Positions 57-7,983 of a stretch of 11,244 bases of DNA are shown one piece after another. Position 1 is the stretch's first letter; every line of letters starts with the position of its first letter. Origin of the DNA: a virus; the UHGV virus genome UHGV-0101776; one strand, 5' to 3'. A model generated the notes under the pieces. The model made no database searches. It saw nothing but the letters and a program-made list of their open reading frames with translations, and was not told the DNA's origin. Both the position numbers and the translations under genes were made by a program.

Positions 57-96
57 AAAAAGGCCTGCGATTACCAGCAGGCCTTTATCTTTTTTT
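57..96. terminator. Bidirectional rho-independent terminator at the 3' end of the HNH gene
   Basis: 8-bp stem aggcctgc/gcaggcct (61-84) with an 8-nt loop. It is flanked by an A-run (57-60, a T-run on the minus strand) and by ttatcttttttt (85-96) on the plus strand. The hairpin sits immediately after the minus-strand stop at 85-87. Confidence 0.55.
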
Positions 97-696
97 AACA
101 CGCTTTCGAGTCCTTTTAGATTTTTCCTTAAGATATTCCGCAAGTTTATCCTCATCATTATTAAATTGAGATAAAAGCTCATGCTCGCAATTAAGTGCTT
201 TACTCGCATAAGTTCCATATAGTTTCTTTCTTGCTAGTGCTGCTATGAATGCTGCATCTTCTTTGCTATCGAAATACCCTAACGATATTGTCTTATTTTT
301 ATAACCAACATAAGACTTCCACCTGCCAGTTGTCTTATCCCAAGACACTCCAATCGCACCGGATGTGTTTAACCTATTCCCTACAATGTTTCTTGCATTC
401 TGCTCCTCTGTTGCCAGTCTTAGATTTGAAATCCTATTGTCAAGTCTGTTCCCATTTACATGATCAATAAACTTAGGAGGCCATTTTTTGTATACATAGA
501 ACCAAGCAAGTCTATGCGCATAATACAAAACATTATTTATGCTAATGCATATATAACCACCACTAACACCTCCAGCAATACTACCTTTTACTCTTACTAC
601 TGAATTTGTTTTTAGCCATTTAAATATTCCTGTTTCTGAGTCATATGATAATGTTGACAGAAGCTCATCGTGATCAATTAGTTTTTTTATTCGCAT
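85..696 (-). CDS. HNH homing endonuclease with AP2-type DNA-binding domain
   Basis: 203-aa ORF. HNH motif IDHVNGNRLDNRISNLRLATEEQNARN, followed by an AP2-like segment GVSWDKTTGRWKSYVGYKNKTISLGYFDSKEDAAFIAALARKKLYG. Visibly AT-rich compared with the adjacent helicase gene. No obvious SD before the ATG at 696. Confidence 0.8.
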   Translation of the reverse strand: MRIKKLIDHDELLSTLSYDSETGIFKWLKTNSVVRVKGSIAGGVSGGYICISINNVLYYAHRLAWFYVYKKWPPKFIDHVNGNRLDNRISNLRLATEEQNARNIVGNRLNTSGAIGVSWDKTTGRWKSYVGYKNKTISLGYFDSKEDAAFIAALARKKLYGTYASKALNCEHELLSQFNNDEDKLAEYLKEKSKRTRKRVKKR

Positions 697-778: not shown

Positions 779-2214
779 CAGAATCCTCCTTTCTTCTTGG
801 ATTGCGGTTCCTCGCGTTCACGGCGGCGCATTTCAGCGGACTGTTGGTCTGTGTCATAAATAGCGCCATTTGCCTGAATGCAATACACCGTGCCGGTATT
901 GCCATGACGATTGAGACGAAGGATTAGTTCGGTTTCACCAGGTGGAACACTGTCATCAAAAGCACCTTCACGATGGATCCCCACCCAATAATCGCAATCC
1001 TGTTCAATCTGCCCTGTATCTCGTGAGTCACTTGGTAATGGGCGTTTATTGGTTCTGCTTTCCAGTGCGCGGTTAAGCTGCGTCAGAAGCACAACAACGC
1101 AATCAAGCTCTTTGGCAAGGTTCTTCAGTCCTTTGGTGATCATGCCGTAAGCAAGGTCGTTGCGATCGGCCTTCTCAGCAGTCATTAGTGTCAGGTAATC
1201 GACCAGAATCATGCCAACACATCCTTTTTCTCGCTTGATTCGACGACTTTCGCTGACGATTTGAGCCAGAGATAATCCCGGCGTGTCGTCGATGTAAAGC
1301 AGGTCGATTTCACTCAAGCGATTGGCTGTTTCGATCGCCCTGTTGAAGTCACCATCGTAATCACCCTGATAGCCGTCATCAGCGTCATTTGTCGCCGGAA
1401 GGTAAAAAATATTCGGGTTAACACCTGACTTCTGTCCTACCAGTTTTTCCAGTATCTGGTCACCGGGCATTTCAAGGCTGAACATCAGAGCGGGCTTTTT
1501 CTCATGCACTGCGCAGTTGATTGCCATCTGGCTGTATAGCGTCGTTTTCCCCATCTTAGGGCGAGCGCCAATGACAAACAGAGAGCCTTTCACCAGACCT
1601 TTCGGTGACAGCATCCTGTCCAGCGATGGGATCCCTGTGCTCATTCCTCGTTGTTCGCCTGACGGGTCAAATCGCTTCTCAAGGTCGCTAACCCAGTCTT
1701 CCATGACCTCACCAAATGAGCGAAGGCCGCGACGCGATCCGGTTTTTGCATGGTCTGTCAGTTGCGTAAAAATCGCCTGAATAGCTTCGTACTTCTGCGT
1801 CGCAGTCATTCCGTTGCGGGAATAGAGCAATTCCGTCGCTTCAGTCATGCGGTTGATGGCGTAGCGTTCCATTGCGGTTTCACGAACCTGCATTGCATAG
1901 GCAACGATGTTTGCTGCGCTTGGCGTGTTCTTTGCGATCTCAGCGATATAAGCAAAACCGCCAACAGACGCCGTTAACGATTTACGCTCCAGTTCATCGA
2001 AAAGCGTCAGGCCATCTACTGGCTTTTGCTCCCGGTGCATTCTGGTTATTTCTTCGAAAAGGATTTTGTGTGGTCGGCTGTAAAATGAATCAGGCTTCAG
2101 CATCGCCAGAACTTTCTGGACGCGCTCACTGCTGTCATCATCCAGAAGCAATCCACCAATCACCGCCTGCTCTGCCTCGATGCTATGGGGCGGCGCATAA
2201 AAATTATCGGTCAT
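778..2214 (-). CDS. DnaB-family replicative DNA helicase (phage P22 gene 12-type)
   Basis: Walker A GARPKMGKTTL, Walker B-like ILVDYLTLM and the DnaB-like LLTQLNR motif. The ATG at 2214 overlaps the upstream initiator stop (ATGACCGATAA) with GAGG upstream. The ORF track's longer form starts at a GTG at 2229; the ATG is preferred. Confidence 0.88.
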   Translation of the reverse strand: MTDNFYAPPHSIEAEQAVIGGLLLDDDSSERVQKVLAMLKPDSFYSRPHKILFEEITRMHREQKPVDGLTLFDELERKSLTASVGGFAYIAEIAKNTPSAANIVAYAMQVRETAMERYAINRMTEATELLYSRNGMTATQKYEAIQAIFTQLTDHAKTGSRRGLRSFGEVMEDWVSDLEKRFDPSGEQRGMSTGIPSLDRMLSPKGLVKGSLFVIGARPKMGKTTLYSQMAINCAVHEKKPALMFSLEMPGDQILEKLVGQKSGVNPNIFYLPATNDADDGYQGDYDGDFNRAIETANRLSEIDLLYIDDTPGLSLAQIVSESRRIKREKGCVGMILVDYLTLMTAEKADRNDLAYGMITKGLKNLAKELDCVVVLLTQLNRALESRTNKRPLPSDSRDTGQIEQDCDYWVGIHREGAFDDSVPPGETELILRLNRHGNTGTVYCIQANGAIYDTDQQSAEMRRREREEPQSKKKGGF

Positions 2215-3094
2215 CGTGTTCACCCTCACGAACTTTCAGGTAGGTATTATCGTTAAGCAGGAAATCAAATCCCTTTTTGTGCCAGACGGTTCCGCGTTGA
2301 TGGTTTGGGCGCTCTTCGAACATCCATCGGCAATTTTCGCCAACGTAGCTCAAATAATTTCTCCAGTCCTGCATCGTGAACCCATGCCCGTCAAGTTGGC
2401 GTGTTATTACTCCGGCTTTGCGCCAGAACGTTCGGATCTGGTTTTTACGCTTGTCATTCAGTGCGCGGATTCTTGGCGCTTCAGGAAGGATTTCGTGGTA
2501 AGCATCGACAACATCCTGACAGCTGACGGAAGGTTTTTTCTTGTCAGACTTTTTGTCTGCTGTGGCACTCTCTAATACGTCAGTATTAGAGATATTATTT
2601 ATATTATTGTTTATGGACAACCGTTGGACAACCGTTGGACAATCTCCGCTGAGAGCCGCGCCATTACTGGTGTTTGCGTTGGACAACCGTTGGACAACCG
2701 TTGGACAATTTTTTGCCTGAAAATCGTCATATTTAACGATTGTAAACAGGCTAAATTTCTTCCCCATCGAGCAAATATTAAGCATCCCTTTCGACTCAAA
2801 AGTCCGTAATAAGCTCCGAACTTTGTTGTCGGGGATGAATGTTTCTCTGACCAGCGACGGGCGTCCAGTTATCATCTGACCGCGATCAACAGTTATCGGC
2901 CCGATATCCGTATTGACGACAGTAGATTCGTGATTAGCCTTGAGGATTAAGTGAAGCCAAAGATGTACTGCCTGAGAGTCCTTATAGAGCCTGCTGTCCA
3001 TAAACTGGCGGTGTATAGAGACATACCCCATACTGGATGCCTCCTGATGTTGTACAGGGTTATGCCTGTAATCAGCTAACTTAACGACGCCCAT
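2204..3094 (-). CDS. Phage replication initiator (lambda O-like role), origin embedded in the gene
   Basis: 296-aa ORF directly upstream of, and overlapping, the helicase gene. Strong SD AGGAG 6 nt before the ATG at 3094. Iteron repeats lie inside the central part of the gene (translated as the repeated CPTVVQRLS), the same arrangement as lambda O/ori. Conserved-looking C-terminal domain (TFWRKAG...GTVWHKKGFDFLLNDNTYLKV). Confidence 0.75.
   Translation of the reverse strand: MGVVKLADYRHNPVQHQEASSMGYVSIHRQFMDSRLYKDSQAVHLWLHLILKANHESTVVNTDIGPITVDRGQMITGRPSLVRETFIPDNKVRSLLRTFESKGMLNICSMGKKFSLFTIVKYDDFQAKNCPTVVQRLSNANTSNGAALSGDCPTVVQRLSINNNINNISNTDVLESATADKKSDKKKPSVSCQDVVDAYHEILPEAPRIRALNDKRKNQIRTFWRKAGVITRQLDGHGFTMQDWRNYLSYVGENCRWMFEERPNHQRGTVWHKKGFDFLLNDNTYLKVREGEHDDR
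2585..2708. repeat. Replication-origin iterons plus adjacent AT-rich region
   Basis: Six copies of GGACAA at 11-bp spacing (unit GGACAACCGTT) in two clusters of three, 2615-2642 and 2681-2708. The clusters are 66 bp apart (6 x 11), so all copies are in helical phase. An AT-rich stretch at 2585-2614 flanks them on the side downstream in gene orientation. Confidence 0.75.
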
Positions 3095-3242
3095 GCTTCA
3101 CTCCTGCTTTGGCTAGTCTGTAAACACCAACAAGGCGCTCTGCGAACGCCCTGTTATTTGCTGCGGCTACCACTAATCCCTCAGGTGAATCAGGGTGTCG
3201 AATCTCTTCTTTTTCCTGGTATTTCTTACGACGTTTTGTCAT
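3078..3242 (-). CDS. Small basic hypothetical protein (54 aa) between cII and the initiator gene
   Basis: ATG at 3242 preceded by AGGAG (spacing 6). Product MTKRRKKYQEKEEIRHPDSPEGLVVAAANNRAFAERLVGVYRLAKAGVKHGRR. The stop overlaps the initiator start by 17 nt. Not in the ORF track (under 60 aa). Confidence 0.4.
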
Positions 3243-3253
3243 AATTACTCCTG

Positions 3254-3330
3254 TGGATTGATCCAGTAATTCCCTCAGAATTGCATATCAATTTGCTTAG
3301 AGTCCCCGGCGGCCACCGGGGATTTTTTCT
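3254..3330 (+). ncRNA. oop: oop-like antisense RNA overlapping the cII 3' end, with intrinsic terminator
   Basis: The segment gatccagtaat...cctcagaa... ends in the hairpin ccccgg-cggcca-ccgggg plus attttttcttt (3305-3330). It closely resembles my recollection of lambda oop RNA in sequence, length (about 77 nt) and position antisense to the cII 3' end. CATAAT at 3240-3245 is a candidate -10 for Po. Confidence 0.6.
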
Positions 3331-3571
3331 TTGTGATTCCATCAAGCGCATACTTAAAAGCCCTACTAATCGGACTGATGTCTGATGCCATTCCGAAAGC
3401 ACACAAGACTGAAGCAATAAATCTCCAGTCCGTTCTGCTTATCTTCGATTCATGACAGCCAATCATCTTTGCCAGACCGCGCTGGGTAAGCGTTGACAGG
3501 TTGATGAGTAAATCTGTTTCTGCGCGATCAACGTCACGCTGGGATAGTTTGCTGTAACTTGTTTGTTCCAT
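3275..3571 (-). CDS. cII: CII-like transcriptional activator
   Basis: 98 aa, with clear similarity to lambda CII in the HTH and C-terminal parts (...KISRTDW...KKKSPVAAGDSKQIDMQF versus lambda ...QISRWKRDW...KKRPAATERSEQIQMEF). Sits immediately downstream of cro and nutR. Confidence 0.85.
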   Translation of the reverse strand: MEQTSYSKLSQRDVDRAETDLLINLSTLTQRGLAKMIGCHESKISRTDWRFIASVLCAFGMASDISPISRAFKYALDGITKKKSPVAAGDSKQIDMQF

Positions 3572-3585
3572 TTCTTATGATTTCC
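3549..3585 (+). promoter_or_regulatory. Candidate PRE establishment promoter with CII-binding repeat
   Basis: TTGC-N6-TTGT at 3549-3562 on the plus strand, inside cII codons 3-7. This is the same position as the TTGC-N6-TTGC CII site of lambda PRE. A TATGAT -10-like hexamer lies at 3577-3582. Orientation would drive transcription antisense through cro into cI. Confidence 0.5.
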
Positions 3586-3656
3586 AATAGTGAATAGCTA
3601 GTTGAAAGGTATGCGTGGAAACGCATATGGCCTTGGTTGGTCAGATATTCTGGGAT

Positions 3657-3702
3657 TCGCTTTTCAGCGACGTAGGACGAATGTCCGTTGTTACAAAGAG
3701 CG
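3657..3702 (-). promoter_or_regulatory. nutR-like site (boxA plus boxB hairpin)
   Basis: On the minus-strand transcript just after the cro stop: boxA-like CGCTCTTTG (reverse complement of 3694-3702), then after about 23 nt the hairpin UCGCU-GAAA-AGCGA (reverse complement of 3657-3670), a 5-bp stem with a GNRA-type loop like lambda boxB. Confidence 0.5.
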
Positions 3703-3709
3703 GGGTTAC

Positions 3710-3943
3710 TTATGCTGCTGATGCTCTACGCGATACGAACACCAGATTTTCCTTTTTCACAGGTTTATAACCCGTGAAATTACGAGTGGCTTCTTCGATT
3801 GCATTCGCTTTATCTGGGGAAGCTCTTCGAAACCCATATGCAATCTGATCAAGATAGCCAACTGAAGTATTCGCTAATGCGGCGAGTCGCTTCCATTCCT
3901 CACTAGAAGCCTCTTTTCGCCAGCGTAGTAGTTCATTACTCAT
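3710..3943 (-). CDS. cro: Cro-like HTH repressor
   Basis: 77-aa ORF divergent from cI across the operator region, first gene of the operon containing cII. GGAGG SD 6 nt before the ATG. HTH-like segment WKRLAALANTSVGYLDQIAYG. Confidence 0.7.
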   Translation of the reverse strand: MSNELLRWRKEASSEEWKRLAALANTSVGYLDQIAYGFRRASPDKANAIEEATRNFTGYKPVKKENLVFVSRRASAA

Positions 3944-4056
3944 TAGTGCCTCCGTTTATCACACAGAGCAACTTTACCATTTTGATAAATAAACTGCAAT
4001 GGAGATTTATCAAAATGCGTATTTATCCATTTGCTAAATAGAGGGAGAATCGTGGG
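3944..4056. promoter_or_regulatory. OR operator region with divergent promoters (PR toward cro, PRM toward cI)
   Basis: Three ATTTATC-containing operator-like sites: reverse complement of 3973-3989 (TTTATCAAAATGGTAAA), 4006-4022 (TTTATCAAAATGCGTAT) and 4022-4038 (TTTATCCATTTGCTAAA). Candidate PR on the minus strand: -35 TTGCAG (reverse complement of 3994-3999), 17-bp spacer, -10 TAAAGT (reverse complement of 3971-3976). PRM was not confidently placed. Confidence 0.7.
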
Positions 4057-4761
4057 ATGGAAAACAAAGATATTCGCAAATCGAATCTGGCGTTTTTGCT
4101 AGATGAGCATAAAAAAATCGCGGGTAACACTAATGCAAGCTTTGCCGATAAGCTTGGAGTTAGCCCTTCTCAACTCACGCAAGTCTCCGGTGAAAAAAGC
4201 ACTCGAAACATAGGGGATAAACTAGCAAGAAAATTCGAAGCCGCACTTGGGTTACCTAATGGGTGGCTTGATTTGGTACATGATGTAACACCAATTGCAT
4301 CATGCTCAGATTCTTTAACTTTTGTCGGTCAGGTAAGAAAAGGGTTAGTGCGCGTGGTTGGTGAGGCAATTCTTGGTGTTGATGGTGCCATCGAGATGAC
4401 CGAAGAGCGCGATGGGTGGCTCAAGATTTATAGCGATGATCCAGATGCCTTTGGTCTTCGTGTGAAAGGAGACAGCATGTGGCCTAGAATAAAATCAGGA
4501 GAATATGTACTCATTGAGCCTAACACCAAAGTATTCCCGGGGGATGAGGTGTTTGTCAGAACCGTTGAAGGACACAACATGATCAAGATTCTTGGCTATG
4601 ACAGAGATGGAGAATACCAATTTACAAGCATCAACCAGGACCACAGGCCAATAACGTTACCTTATCATCAAGTAGCAAAGGTGGAGTATGTGGCTGGTAT
4701 TCTGAAGCAATCTCGTCATCTGGATGACATCGAGGCAAGGGAGTGGCTGAAAAGTTTGTGA
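4057..4761 (+). CDS. cI: CI-type prophage repressor (N-terminal HTH, C-terminal S24/LexA-like autopeptidase)
   Basis: 234 aa. N-terminal HTH region; C-terminal domain with the GDSMWP serine motif typical of LexA/CI self-cleaving repressors. SD GAGGGAG upstream. Divergent from cro. Confidence 0.88.
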   Translation: MENKDIRKSNLAFLLDEHKKIAGNTNASFADKLGVSPSQLTQVSGEKSTRNIGDKLARKFEAALGLPNGWLDLVHDVTPIASCSDSLTFVGQVRKGLVRVVGEAILGVDGAIEMTEERDGWLKIYSDDPDAFGLRVKGDSMWPRIKSGEYVLIEPNTKVFPGDEVFVRTVEGHNMIKILGYDRDGEYQFTSINQDHRPITLPYHQVAKVEYVAGILKQSRHLDDIEAREWLKSL

Positions 4762-6260: not shown

Positions 6261-6313
6261 GGGATGCAATGCCGAAGCAACTCTCTCAGGAGTAGCTTCG
6301 GGATTGCATCGCC
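6261..6313 (+). promoter_or_regulatory. Long imperfect hairpin in the N leader (candidate RNase III processing or translation-control element)
   Basis: Arms gggatgcaatgccgaagc (6261-6278) and gcttcgggattgcatcgcc (6295-6313) pair over about 17 bp with one mismatch and one bulge, enclosing a 16-nt loop. Located between nutL and the N SD (GGGAGG at 6325-6330). Confidence 0.45.
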
Positions 6314-6335
6314 AGAGTTTATTCGGGAGGAATCC

Positions 6336-6608
6336 ATGTCCAGAAAAACAGAATTTAAAGGAACCGCAGCTTCTCGCCGTAGAGAGCGTCGCGCAAATCT
6401 GCAAAGTCAGGAGGCGATCAGCTCCGACAAGCTACACAGGCCAACCCCTTCACGAGTGGTCTTGCAATGCAAGCGCAAACCAGCAATGAGAGCAGAAGTG
6501 ATAACTCTGACAACGTTGACCAGAAAATATGAAGGTTCAACTTGTCTTCCGAACGTAGCTCTTTACGCGGCAGGCTACCGGAAATCAAAACAACTGACGG
6601 CGAGATGA
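6336..6608 (+). CDS. N: N-like transcription antitermination protein
   Basis: 90 aa. N-terminal arginine-rich motif ASRRRERRANLQ, matching the RRRERRA of the lambda N ARM. Positioned downstream of PL/nutL with a leader of about 185 nt. The ORF-track frame 6264..6608 extends upstream; the ATG at 6336 has the SD. Confidence 0.7.
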   Translation: MSRKTEFKGTAASRRRERRANLQSQEAISSDKLHRPTPSRVVLQCKRKPAMRAEVITLTTLTRKYEGSTCLPNVALYAAGYRKSKQLTAR

Positions 6609-7782: not shown

Positions 7783-7842
7783 ATGCATACCAATAACGCT
7801 TCATTCGAGGCGTTTTCGTTATGTATAAATAAGGAGCACACC

Positions 7843-7983
7843 ATGCAATATGCCATTGCAGGGTGGCCTGTTGCTGGCTGCCCTTCCGAATCTTTACTTG
7901 AACGAATCACACGTAAATTACGTGATGGATGGAAACGCCTTATCGACATACTTAATCAGCCAGGAGTTCCCAAAAATGGATAA
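7843..7983 (+). CDS. cIII: CIII (inhibitor of FtsH-mediated CII degradation)
   Basis: 46 aa, MQYAIAGWPVAGCPSESLLERITRKLRDGWKRLIDILNQPGVPKNG. Essentially identical to my recollection of lambda CIII over this length, but lacking the last 8 residues. AAGGAG SD 6 nt upstream. The ORF-track ORF 7783..7983 includes a spurious N-terminal extension. Confidence 0.85.
   Translation: MQYAIAGWPVAGCPSESLLERITRKLRDGWKRLIDILNQPGVPKNG

Follow-up and report, generated by a model that had tools for sequence, protein, structure and literature searches.

Can antisense control of cII be conserved in a lambdoid phage whose immunity module is not that of lambda? OOP has been known since the 1970s, and the question arises here from a sequence-only reading of the window (the whole 11,244-nt stretch analysed, from the virus genome UHGV-0101776), which described an oop-like plus-strand unit over the 3' end of cII and held that cI, cro and the operators differ from those of lambda. 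The window comprises the early region of a lambdoid (pro)phage of mosaic composition and reads in reverse relative to the lambda map as usually drawn. Each phage record leaves at least half of it uncovered, the best partial matches being mEp506, HK629, HK620 and Stx1a phages. The pR operon lies on the minus strand, with a cro-like gene (3710-3943), cII (3275-3571), an O-like initiator gene (2204-3094) and a DnaB-like helicase gene (778-2229), just downstream of which an HNH/AP2 endonuclease gene (85-696, minus strand) is likely a homing-endonuclease-type insertion, also found in SH2026Stx1. Between oop and O lies ORF53 (3081-3242, minus strand; 53 codons, beginning MTKRRKKYQEKEE), an HK97 gp53-like frame (phrog_1331) with no Pfam match, which overlaps the start of O by 14 nt and carries the upstream region of pO in its 5' end. 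ORF53 is absent from lambda and present in HK97, HK629, SH2026Stx1 and many prophages. Inside the O-like gene we find two perfect tandem arrays of the 11-nt unit TGGACAACCGT (2614-2642 and 2677-2708), presumably the origin iterons, unlike the 18-bp iterons of lambda.

The pL operon, on the plus strand, holds a cI-like repressor gene (4057-4761), an N-like antiterminator gene (6264-6608) and the genes for Kil, Sak4 and SSB. The lambda cIII thermoregulator is found on the same strand at 7830-7888 with an Rfam score of 88.5 bits; the cIII 5' region is thus nearly identical to that of lambda despite the different immunity genes. In the spacer between cro and cII, a boxB-like hairpin, CGCTGAAAAGCG (3665-3685, minus strand), was spotted by eye only; it would be consistent with a nutR site at which the N-like antiterminator acts.

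The unit opposite cII and its lambda counterpart

A BLAST search with positions 3200-3345 against 2.3 Gb of phage records aligned 3235-3336 to lambda 38592-38693 with 77.5% identity (E = 1e-13), and given this E value the resemblance of the unit to lambda is not due to chance. Both motifs that had been quoted as shared with lambda oop are found, GATCCAGTAAT at 3260-3270 and CCTCAGAA at 3273-3280. The sequence-only reading had also proposed an alignment to lambda oop; made against the reverse complement of NC_001416 38574-38729, it is ungapped between units of equal length, with 56 of 77 positions identical and 21 substitutions. Homology sets in abruptly at TTTGTCATAAT and runs on through the terminator. 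The boundaries were set by the lambda start at 38675 (pO-oop-tO occupying 38675-38599 in lambda), which places the unit at 3253-3329 on the plus strand. Of the interval 3254-3330 given earlier, the length of 77 nt stands but the position does not, the start by homology being G3253 and the end about 3329.

The unit has the place of lambda OOP between cII and the replication genes, its orientation, its 77 nt, its 55-nt overlap with cII (PMC3349717), its TGtCATAAT 7 nt before the start and its 5' hairpin followed by a G+C-rich terminator with T6. It differs from lambda in the outer stem of hairpin I, which is shifted by 4 nt, in two swapped terminator pairs, in the region upstream of -15, which is unrelated, in the 53-codon frame that precedes O, and in a CII protein of only 33% identity. 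Sequence, position, length, orientation and the two-hairpin architecture all match lambda pO-oop-tO and support the identification of 3253-3329 as an OOP homolog. We consider it very probable that a mosaic lambdoid (pro)phage has its oop gene here, in the allele of the Stx phages 933W and H-19B, and that this gene acts by the cII-antisense mechanism proposed below.

The closest named relatives are consistent with this assignment. Over pO -10-oop-tO, the Stx/lambdoid phages 933W, H-19B, BP-4795 and Stx2 phage I are identical to the window at 96 of 97 positions (99%) and carry the same cII type; the window carries the same OOP allele as these phages. In these four O follows oop directly, whereas in the window, HK629, SH2026Stx1 and HK97-like phages ORF53 sits between the two, and for this reason the upstream region of pO differs from that of 933W-type phages.

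The unit also contains the 33-bp core ACTGGATCaATCcACAGGAGTaATTATGaCAAA, at 3235-3267, which is the '33 bp high homology region' defined by Hayes et al. 2012 (PMC3349717). This core is nearly invariant and comprises the -10 element of pO together with the start of oop and its first 14 nt; the opposite strand of the core holds the Shine-Dalgarno sequence and the ATG of the next gene. An alternative to a functional oop has to be weighed at this point, namely that the segment is conserved as an ATG with its Shine-Dalgarno sequence, as the C-terminal tail of cII and as a recombination patch, pO being silent and no functional RNA being made. In its favour, mosaic breakpoints flank the core on both sides, some phages matching the window to the left only and others to the right only. 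Furthermore, the -10 hexamer overlaps the ATG of ORF53 on the other strand, and for CATAAT and ACTCCT conservation is confounded, since CAT is that start codon and ACTCCT the Shine-Dalgarno complement of the downstream gene. The structure of the RNA and the upstream contexts of its homologs bear on the same alternative.

Hairpins and allele classes

The plus-strand unit had been said to end in a G+C-rich hairpin plus T-run over the cII 3' end, and such a structure is indeed present within the 55-nt overlap. The intrinsic terminator tO (3299-3328, plus strand) pairs 3299-3309 with 3316-3326 around the loop CGGCCA and ends in a T-run (T6) at 3323-3328; its hairpin, AGAGTCCCCGG/CCGGGGATTTT (3299-3326), has 11 pairs, six of them G-C, and a folding energy of -17.6 kcal/mol (z = -3.1). 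A terminator scan returned it as the sole plus-strand terminator-like site within 2900-4100. The number of terminator-like sites (2, versus 1.1 +/- 1.2 in shuffles) is not significant by itself, and the case therefore rests on homology, fold energy and covariation.

The whole RNA is predicted to form two hairpins, with an energy of -28.1 kcal/mol (z = -3.4) and a centroid identical to the minimum-free-energy structure; lambda oop, folded for comparison, gives -28.5 kcal/mol (z = -4.3). The strand complementary to OOP folds no better than shuffles (z = -1.4), and this advantage of the plus strand argues against a segment conserved for its minus-strand coding and initiation signals. Stem-loop I (3253-3296, plus strand) consists of an outer stem pairing 3253-3262 with 3287-3296 and an inner stem pairing 3266-3272 with 3278-3284.

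An exact-pattern scan of IMG/VR with a 22-nt core, TGTCATAATNACTCCTGTNGAT, found at least 120 loci. Among the 122 core-bearing loci compared from this listing, three classes can be distinguished by the sequence 3' of the core: class A, the lambda cII type, with RNAs of 77-80 nt; class B, the type of the window, with 77 nt; and class C, the P22 c1 type, with 63-64 nt. Over the first ~18 nt the OOP sequence barely varies between classes; identity from class to class amounts to only 73%, and beyond the first ~14 nt class C is unrelated to the other two. The downstream sequences fall into 36 distinct variants among the matches listed, and each of them has a 5' hairpin, then a G+C-rich hairpin with a T-run at the end. 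Within class C, sub-classes achieve this with wholly different stems (GCCUCGAAGAA.../...UUCUUCGGGGC versus GCCUCAAAACUG.../...CAGUCUUGAGGC). The retention of a plus-strand hairpin and T-run in all three cII/c1 classes, with an unrelated sequence in the P22 class, speaks further against a mere relic.

Class C includes characterised RNAs. P22 oop, which is antisense to c1, and OOP-BTP1 share with the window the 33-bp core (-10, start and first ~14 nt) and a layout in which a small ORF separates oop from the O-like gene and CCTGGT stands equally far upstream of the -10. They differ in that the P22-class RNA is 63 nt long, has a terminator stem of another sequence and is unrelated in its 3' two-thirds, since c1 has a different 3' end. 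The 63-nt P22 oop RNA has been seen by RNA-seq and is identical to the class C sequence (PMC13397905), and OOP-BTP1 has been detected in the Salmonella transcriptome (PMC7067206).

Hairpin I is formed in a different register in each of the two classes with a cII target. In class B, GGAUUGAU pairs with AUCAAUUU, with 10/10 pairs in nine of ten class B variants; in the lambda class, GAUCCAG pairs with CUGGAU, in a register 4 nt off. Each class is fully or almost fully paired in its own register only, and a single hairpin I structure common to both was rejected because the registers differ. The invariant 5' end of OOP holds two alternative arms, (G/U)UGAU and GAUCCAG, and the cII allele class supplies the matching 3' arm.

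The terminator, by contrast with hairpin I, can be aligned between the two classes. Across an alignment of all 23 distinct sequences of classes A and B, 98.9% of the cells of the 12-pair terminator helix are paired, a figure that drops to at most 62% once the 3' partners are displaced by 1-3 columns. From the lambda class to class B, both partners are exchanged in pairs 51-73 and 52-72 (C-G to U-A and G-C to C-G), so that terminator pairing survives two double, compensatory changes. These changes count against the conservation of the segment as a start codon, protein tail or recombination patch.

The putative promoter pO and its upstream contexts

The hexamer CATAAT at 3240-3245 (plus strand) had been proposed as the -10 element, and it aligns exactly with the lambda pO -10, which identifies it as the putative -10 of pO. 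With TG at 3237-3238 it would form an extended -10 (TGtCATAAT, 3237-3245), standing 7 nt before the inferred OOP start, as in lambda. A second IMG/VR scan with a pattern that omits the promoter, GATCCAGTAATNNCCTCAGAA, found CATAAT at the same place in 120 of 120 cases and TG at -15/-14 in 119 of 120, among the matches listed. In lambda, mutations of the pO -10 (38683 A to T; 38683-38687) abolish oop expression (PMC5869508; PMC3985674).

Upstream of the -10 the situation is different. Homology to lambda breaks at 3228-3235 (plus strand), and to the left of ~3235 the window resembles ORF53-type phages and is unrelated to lambda, because ORF53 and not O follows. The upstream sequence of lambda pO, which reaches into O, is thereby absent from the window; in lambda, pO shows almost no activity as a 45-bp fragment and needs 94 bp, extending into gene O (PMC5869508). 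Additionally, no consensus sigma-70 promoter was called in 2900-4100, pO falling below the 9-of-12 rule of the scan because its -35 is weak (or atypical), and support for the promoter therefore comes from homology only. Both the missing upstream activating sequence and the lack of a consensus call favour a silent pO.

The homologs in other contexts point the other way. Four upstream contexts occur among them, of which three (the ORF53 type, the P22 orf48 type and a third type) keep CCTGG(T/A) 18-19 nt before CATAAT. In the window the candidate -35 region is CCTGGTA at 3215-3221 (plus strand), 18 nt before CATAAT, and in the P22 context, represented by P22 locus L163 (around 680-690), CCTGGT is spaced from the -10 in the same way. 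It is possible that the motif serves as a non-canonical -35 or as a regulatory site. Homology between ORF53 and P22 orf48 was considered as the source of the shared CCTGGT, and BLASTP detects no similarity between the two, which for such very short proteins is weak evidence. CCTGG(T/A) is also a Dcm (CCWGG) site, and lambda carries TTGAGT there. Since the 63-nt P22 oop RNA was sequenced (PMC13397905), the promoter of the P22 context is active in vivo, and by analogy pO is probably active in the ORF53 context of the window as well. That P22 and BTP1 homologs are transcribed from behind non-lambda upstream regions, and that the P22 context has the CCTGGT of the window, add to the structural arguments above, and we regard a silent relic or junction as very unlikely.

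The oop start itself is covered by a palindrome-like site of the form CTG-N10-CAG, CTGTGGATTGATCCAG (3251-3266), a candidate weak LexA box. It is the best LexA-like site of the window, with 14 of 20 consensus positions versus 10 of 20 for the next best, and its lambda homolog is CTGTTGATAGATCCAG. A LexA site within lambda oop-pO has been mentioned (PMC5869508). We infer from the sequence that this site corresponds to CTGTTGATAGATCCAG, and hence to CTGTGGATTGATCCAG in the window. Overlapping the LexA-like site is TGTGGATTG (3252-3260), whose complement, CAATCCACA, matches the DnaA box consensus, which we take to be TTATCCACA, at 7 of 9 positions. In lambda, DnaA sites have been reported downstream of pO.

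The shifted registers of hairpin I and the CCTGG(T/A) that unrelated downstream genes keep at a fixed distance from the -10 point towards a broader view, in which OOP would be selected, irrespective of the coding sequences that it overlaps, as a unit of promoter and structured RNA, its alleles representing specificity classes. We put this forward tentatively, as a rather doubtful generalisation. On such a view, the class-specific 3' parts of OOP could decide which cII messages of co-resident prophages are silenced in polylysogens, e.g., EHEC.

cII as the target and the expected consequences for lysogeny

The target of the unit is a true cII homolog: the minus-strand gene at 3275-3571 matches Pfam Phage_CII (E = 2e-31) and phrog_191, and its product is 33% identical to lambda CII. 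OOP overlaps its last 18 codons and stop codon (55 nt, 3275-3329) and is perfectly complementary to the pR transcript over these last 55 nt of cII and the 22-nt spacer between cII and ORF53. Codon-aligned nucleotide identity between cII and its lambda counterpart is 69% (37/54) in the 18 codons under oop versus 44% (98/222) elsewhere, and third-position identity 61% (11/18) versus 32% (24/74). Conservation under oop could derive partly from the C-terminal tail of cII or from a recombination junction.

The immunity genes do diverge from lambda, as the sequence-only reading had it. The cI protein has only its S24 peptidase part in common with lambda cI, cro has no detectable similarity to lambda cro, and no lambda OR1-like site occurs in the window at up to 3 mismatches. 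Given this divergence of cI, cro and the operators, it is correct that oop has been kept next to a different immunity module. By homology, antisense control of cII would be conserved in the phage of the window. The cro-cI intergenic region (3973-4040) has inverted repeats of its own, CATTTTGATAAAT/ATTTATCAAAATG, and two 19-nt copies, all of them candidate operators for an immunity type other than that of lambda. On the plus strand within the 5' end of cII, TTGC-N6-TTGT (3549-3562) occurs where the HK629 record annotates a CII-binding site and is likely the -35 region of pRE; if so, the circuit from CII through pRE to cI would be intact.

The mechanism that we propose would run as follows. RNA polymerase would start at G3253 from pO, using the extended -10 TGtCATAAT, and transcribe against the pR operon as far as tO (3299-3328), yielding a 77-nt RNA with two hairpins. 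This RNA would pair with the pR transcript over the end of cII and the adjoining spacer, and the duplex of OOP and cII mRNA would be cut by RNase III, as in lambda, with less CII as the outcome. Less CII would mean less pRE-driven synthesis of repressor, and lytic growth would be favoured. In addition, pO transcription, being convergent, may lessen the read-through from pR that reaches ORF53, O and the DnaB-like replication gene. The homology, position, predicted structure and terminator covariation of the unit are observed in the window and its homologs. Transcription of OOP, cleavage by RNase III and the effect on lysogeny are expected in this phage on the model of lambda, P22 and BTP1.

Control of cII by OOP as an antisense RNA, dependent on RNase III, has been documented in lambda only (PMC5869508, PMC3985674, PMC12197685). 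Krinke and Wulff (1987, 1990) and Krinke et al. (1991), as they are cited in PMC5869508, PMC3985674 and PMC2327240, describe a duplex of OOP and the pR transcript that is cut by RNase III, upon which CII falls and lytic growth is favoured. The physiological weight of OOP is nevertheless debated, since its role in the removal of CII after SOS induction of lambda is minor, if any (PMC2327240). A scenario in which SOS-induced OOP removes CII after UV was set aside in view of the same report.

Is the RNA or its promoter the element that matters? In lambda, transcription from pO hinders that from the convergent pR, with consequences for replication: when pO is mutated (pO-), more transcription reads through from pR and both phage and plasmid replicate less well, effects that a change in oop RNA stability does not have (PMC3985674). 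The pO of the window likewise faces pR just upstream of ORF53, O with its iterons (2614-2708) and the DnaB-like gene, and the key element could accordingly be the convergent promoter, throttling pR transcription into the replication genes and origin and setting the initiation of replication, with cII antisense as a secondary matter. Such a promoter leaves unexplained the two hairpins, the 77-nt length and the exact cII overlap kept across classes. Moreover, OOP supplied from pO-oop-tO plasmids abolishes CII complementation and activity in lambda (PMC5869508), and promoter and antisense roles are not mutually exclusive. We thus hold it unlikely that promoter interference is the principal function, and retain antisense control of cII as the preferred reading.

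A further possibility concerns the target. The pO-oop-tO unit is 100% identical to several E. coli chromosomes (prophages), and a match to it is found in 1088 of 5426 complete E. coli genomes, roughly one-fifth, many of which hold up to 4 matching copies. The principal targets of OOP might consequently lie in trans, among host mRNAs or the cII messages of other lambdoid prophages in the same cell, and not in its own cII; plasmid-made lambda OOP did clear the plaques of lambda-imm21 and lambda/P22 hybrids (PMC3349717), and the first ~18 nt are near-invariant from class to class. The low identity across classes argues against this, and no host target of OOP is reported in the literature consulted. 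Since complementarity to the cis target is perfect over 77 nt, cis action is the default, and a mainly trans-acting OOP appears very unlikely.

The OOP of the window is real but ordinary, homologs in Stx, HK97-like and P22-like phages being already published and partly annotated. Hayes et al. 2012 used the 33-bp core to map oop in ~20 lambdoid phages, including 933W, H-19B and BP-4795, and pointed out that a small orf separates oop from the O-like gene (PMC3349717); reviews list OOP for 'lambda and Stx phages' (PMC5488031, PMC12197685), and oop, or its promoter and terminator, is annotated at the homologous place in the GenBank entries for HK629 and P22. Rfam 15, in contrast with these records, has no OOP family: neither the window, searched at the gathering threshold and at permissive E-values, nor the lambda oop control gave a meaningful hit, and the weak hits obtained (His_leader, ctRNA_p42d and others; E ~1) match the terminator hairpin by chance. 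RefSeq annotation is empty at oop for this reason, and automatic pipelines leave OOP unannotated in about one-fifth of complete E. coli genomes, where the matching regions bear no label other than 'CII family regulator' or 'hypothetical protein'. This gap in annotation would be closed by a covariance model that draws on all three classes. In Stx phages, OOP bears on the decision between lysis and lysogeny, and thus indirectly on toxin release.
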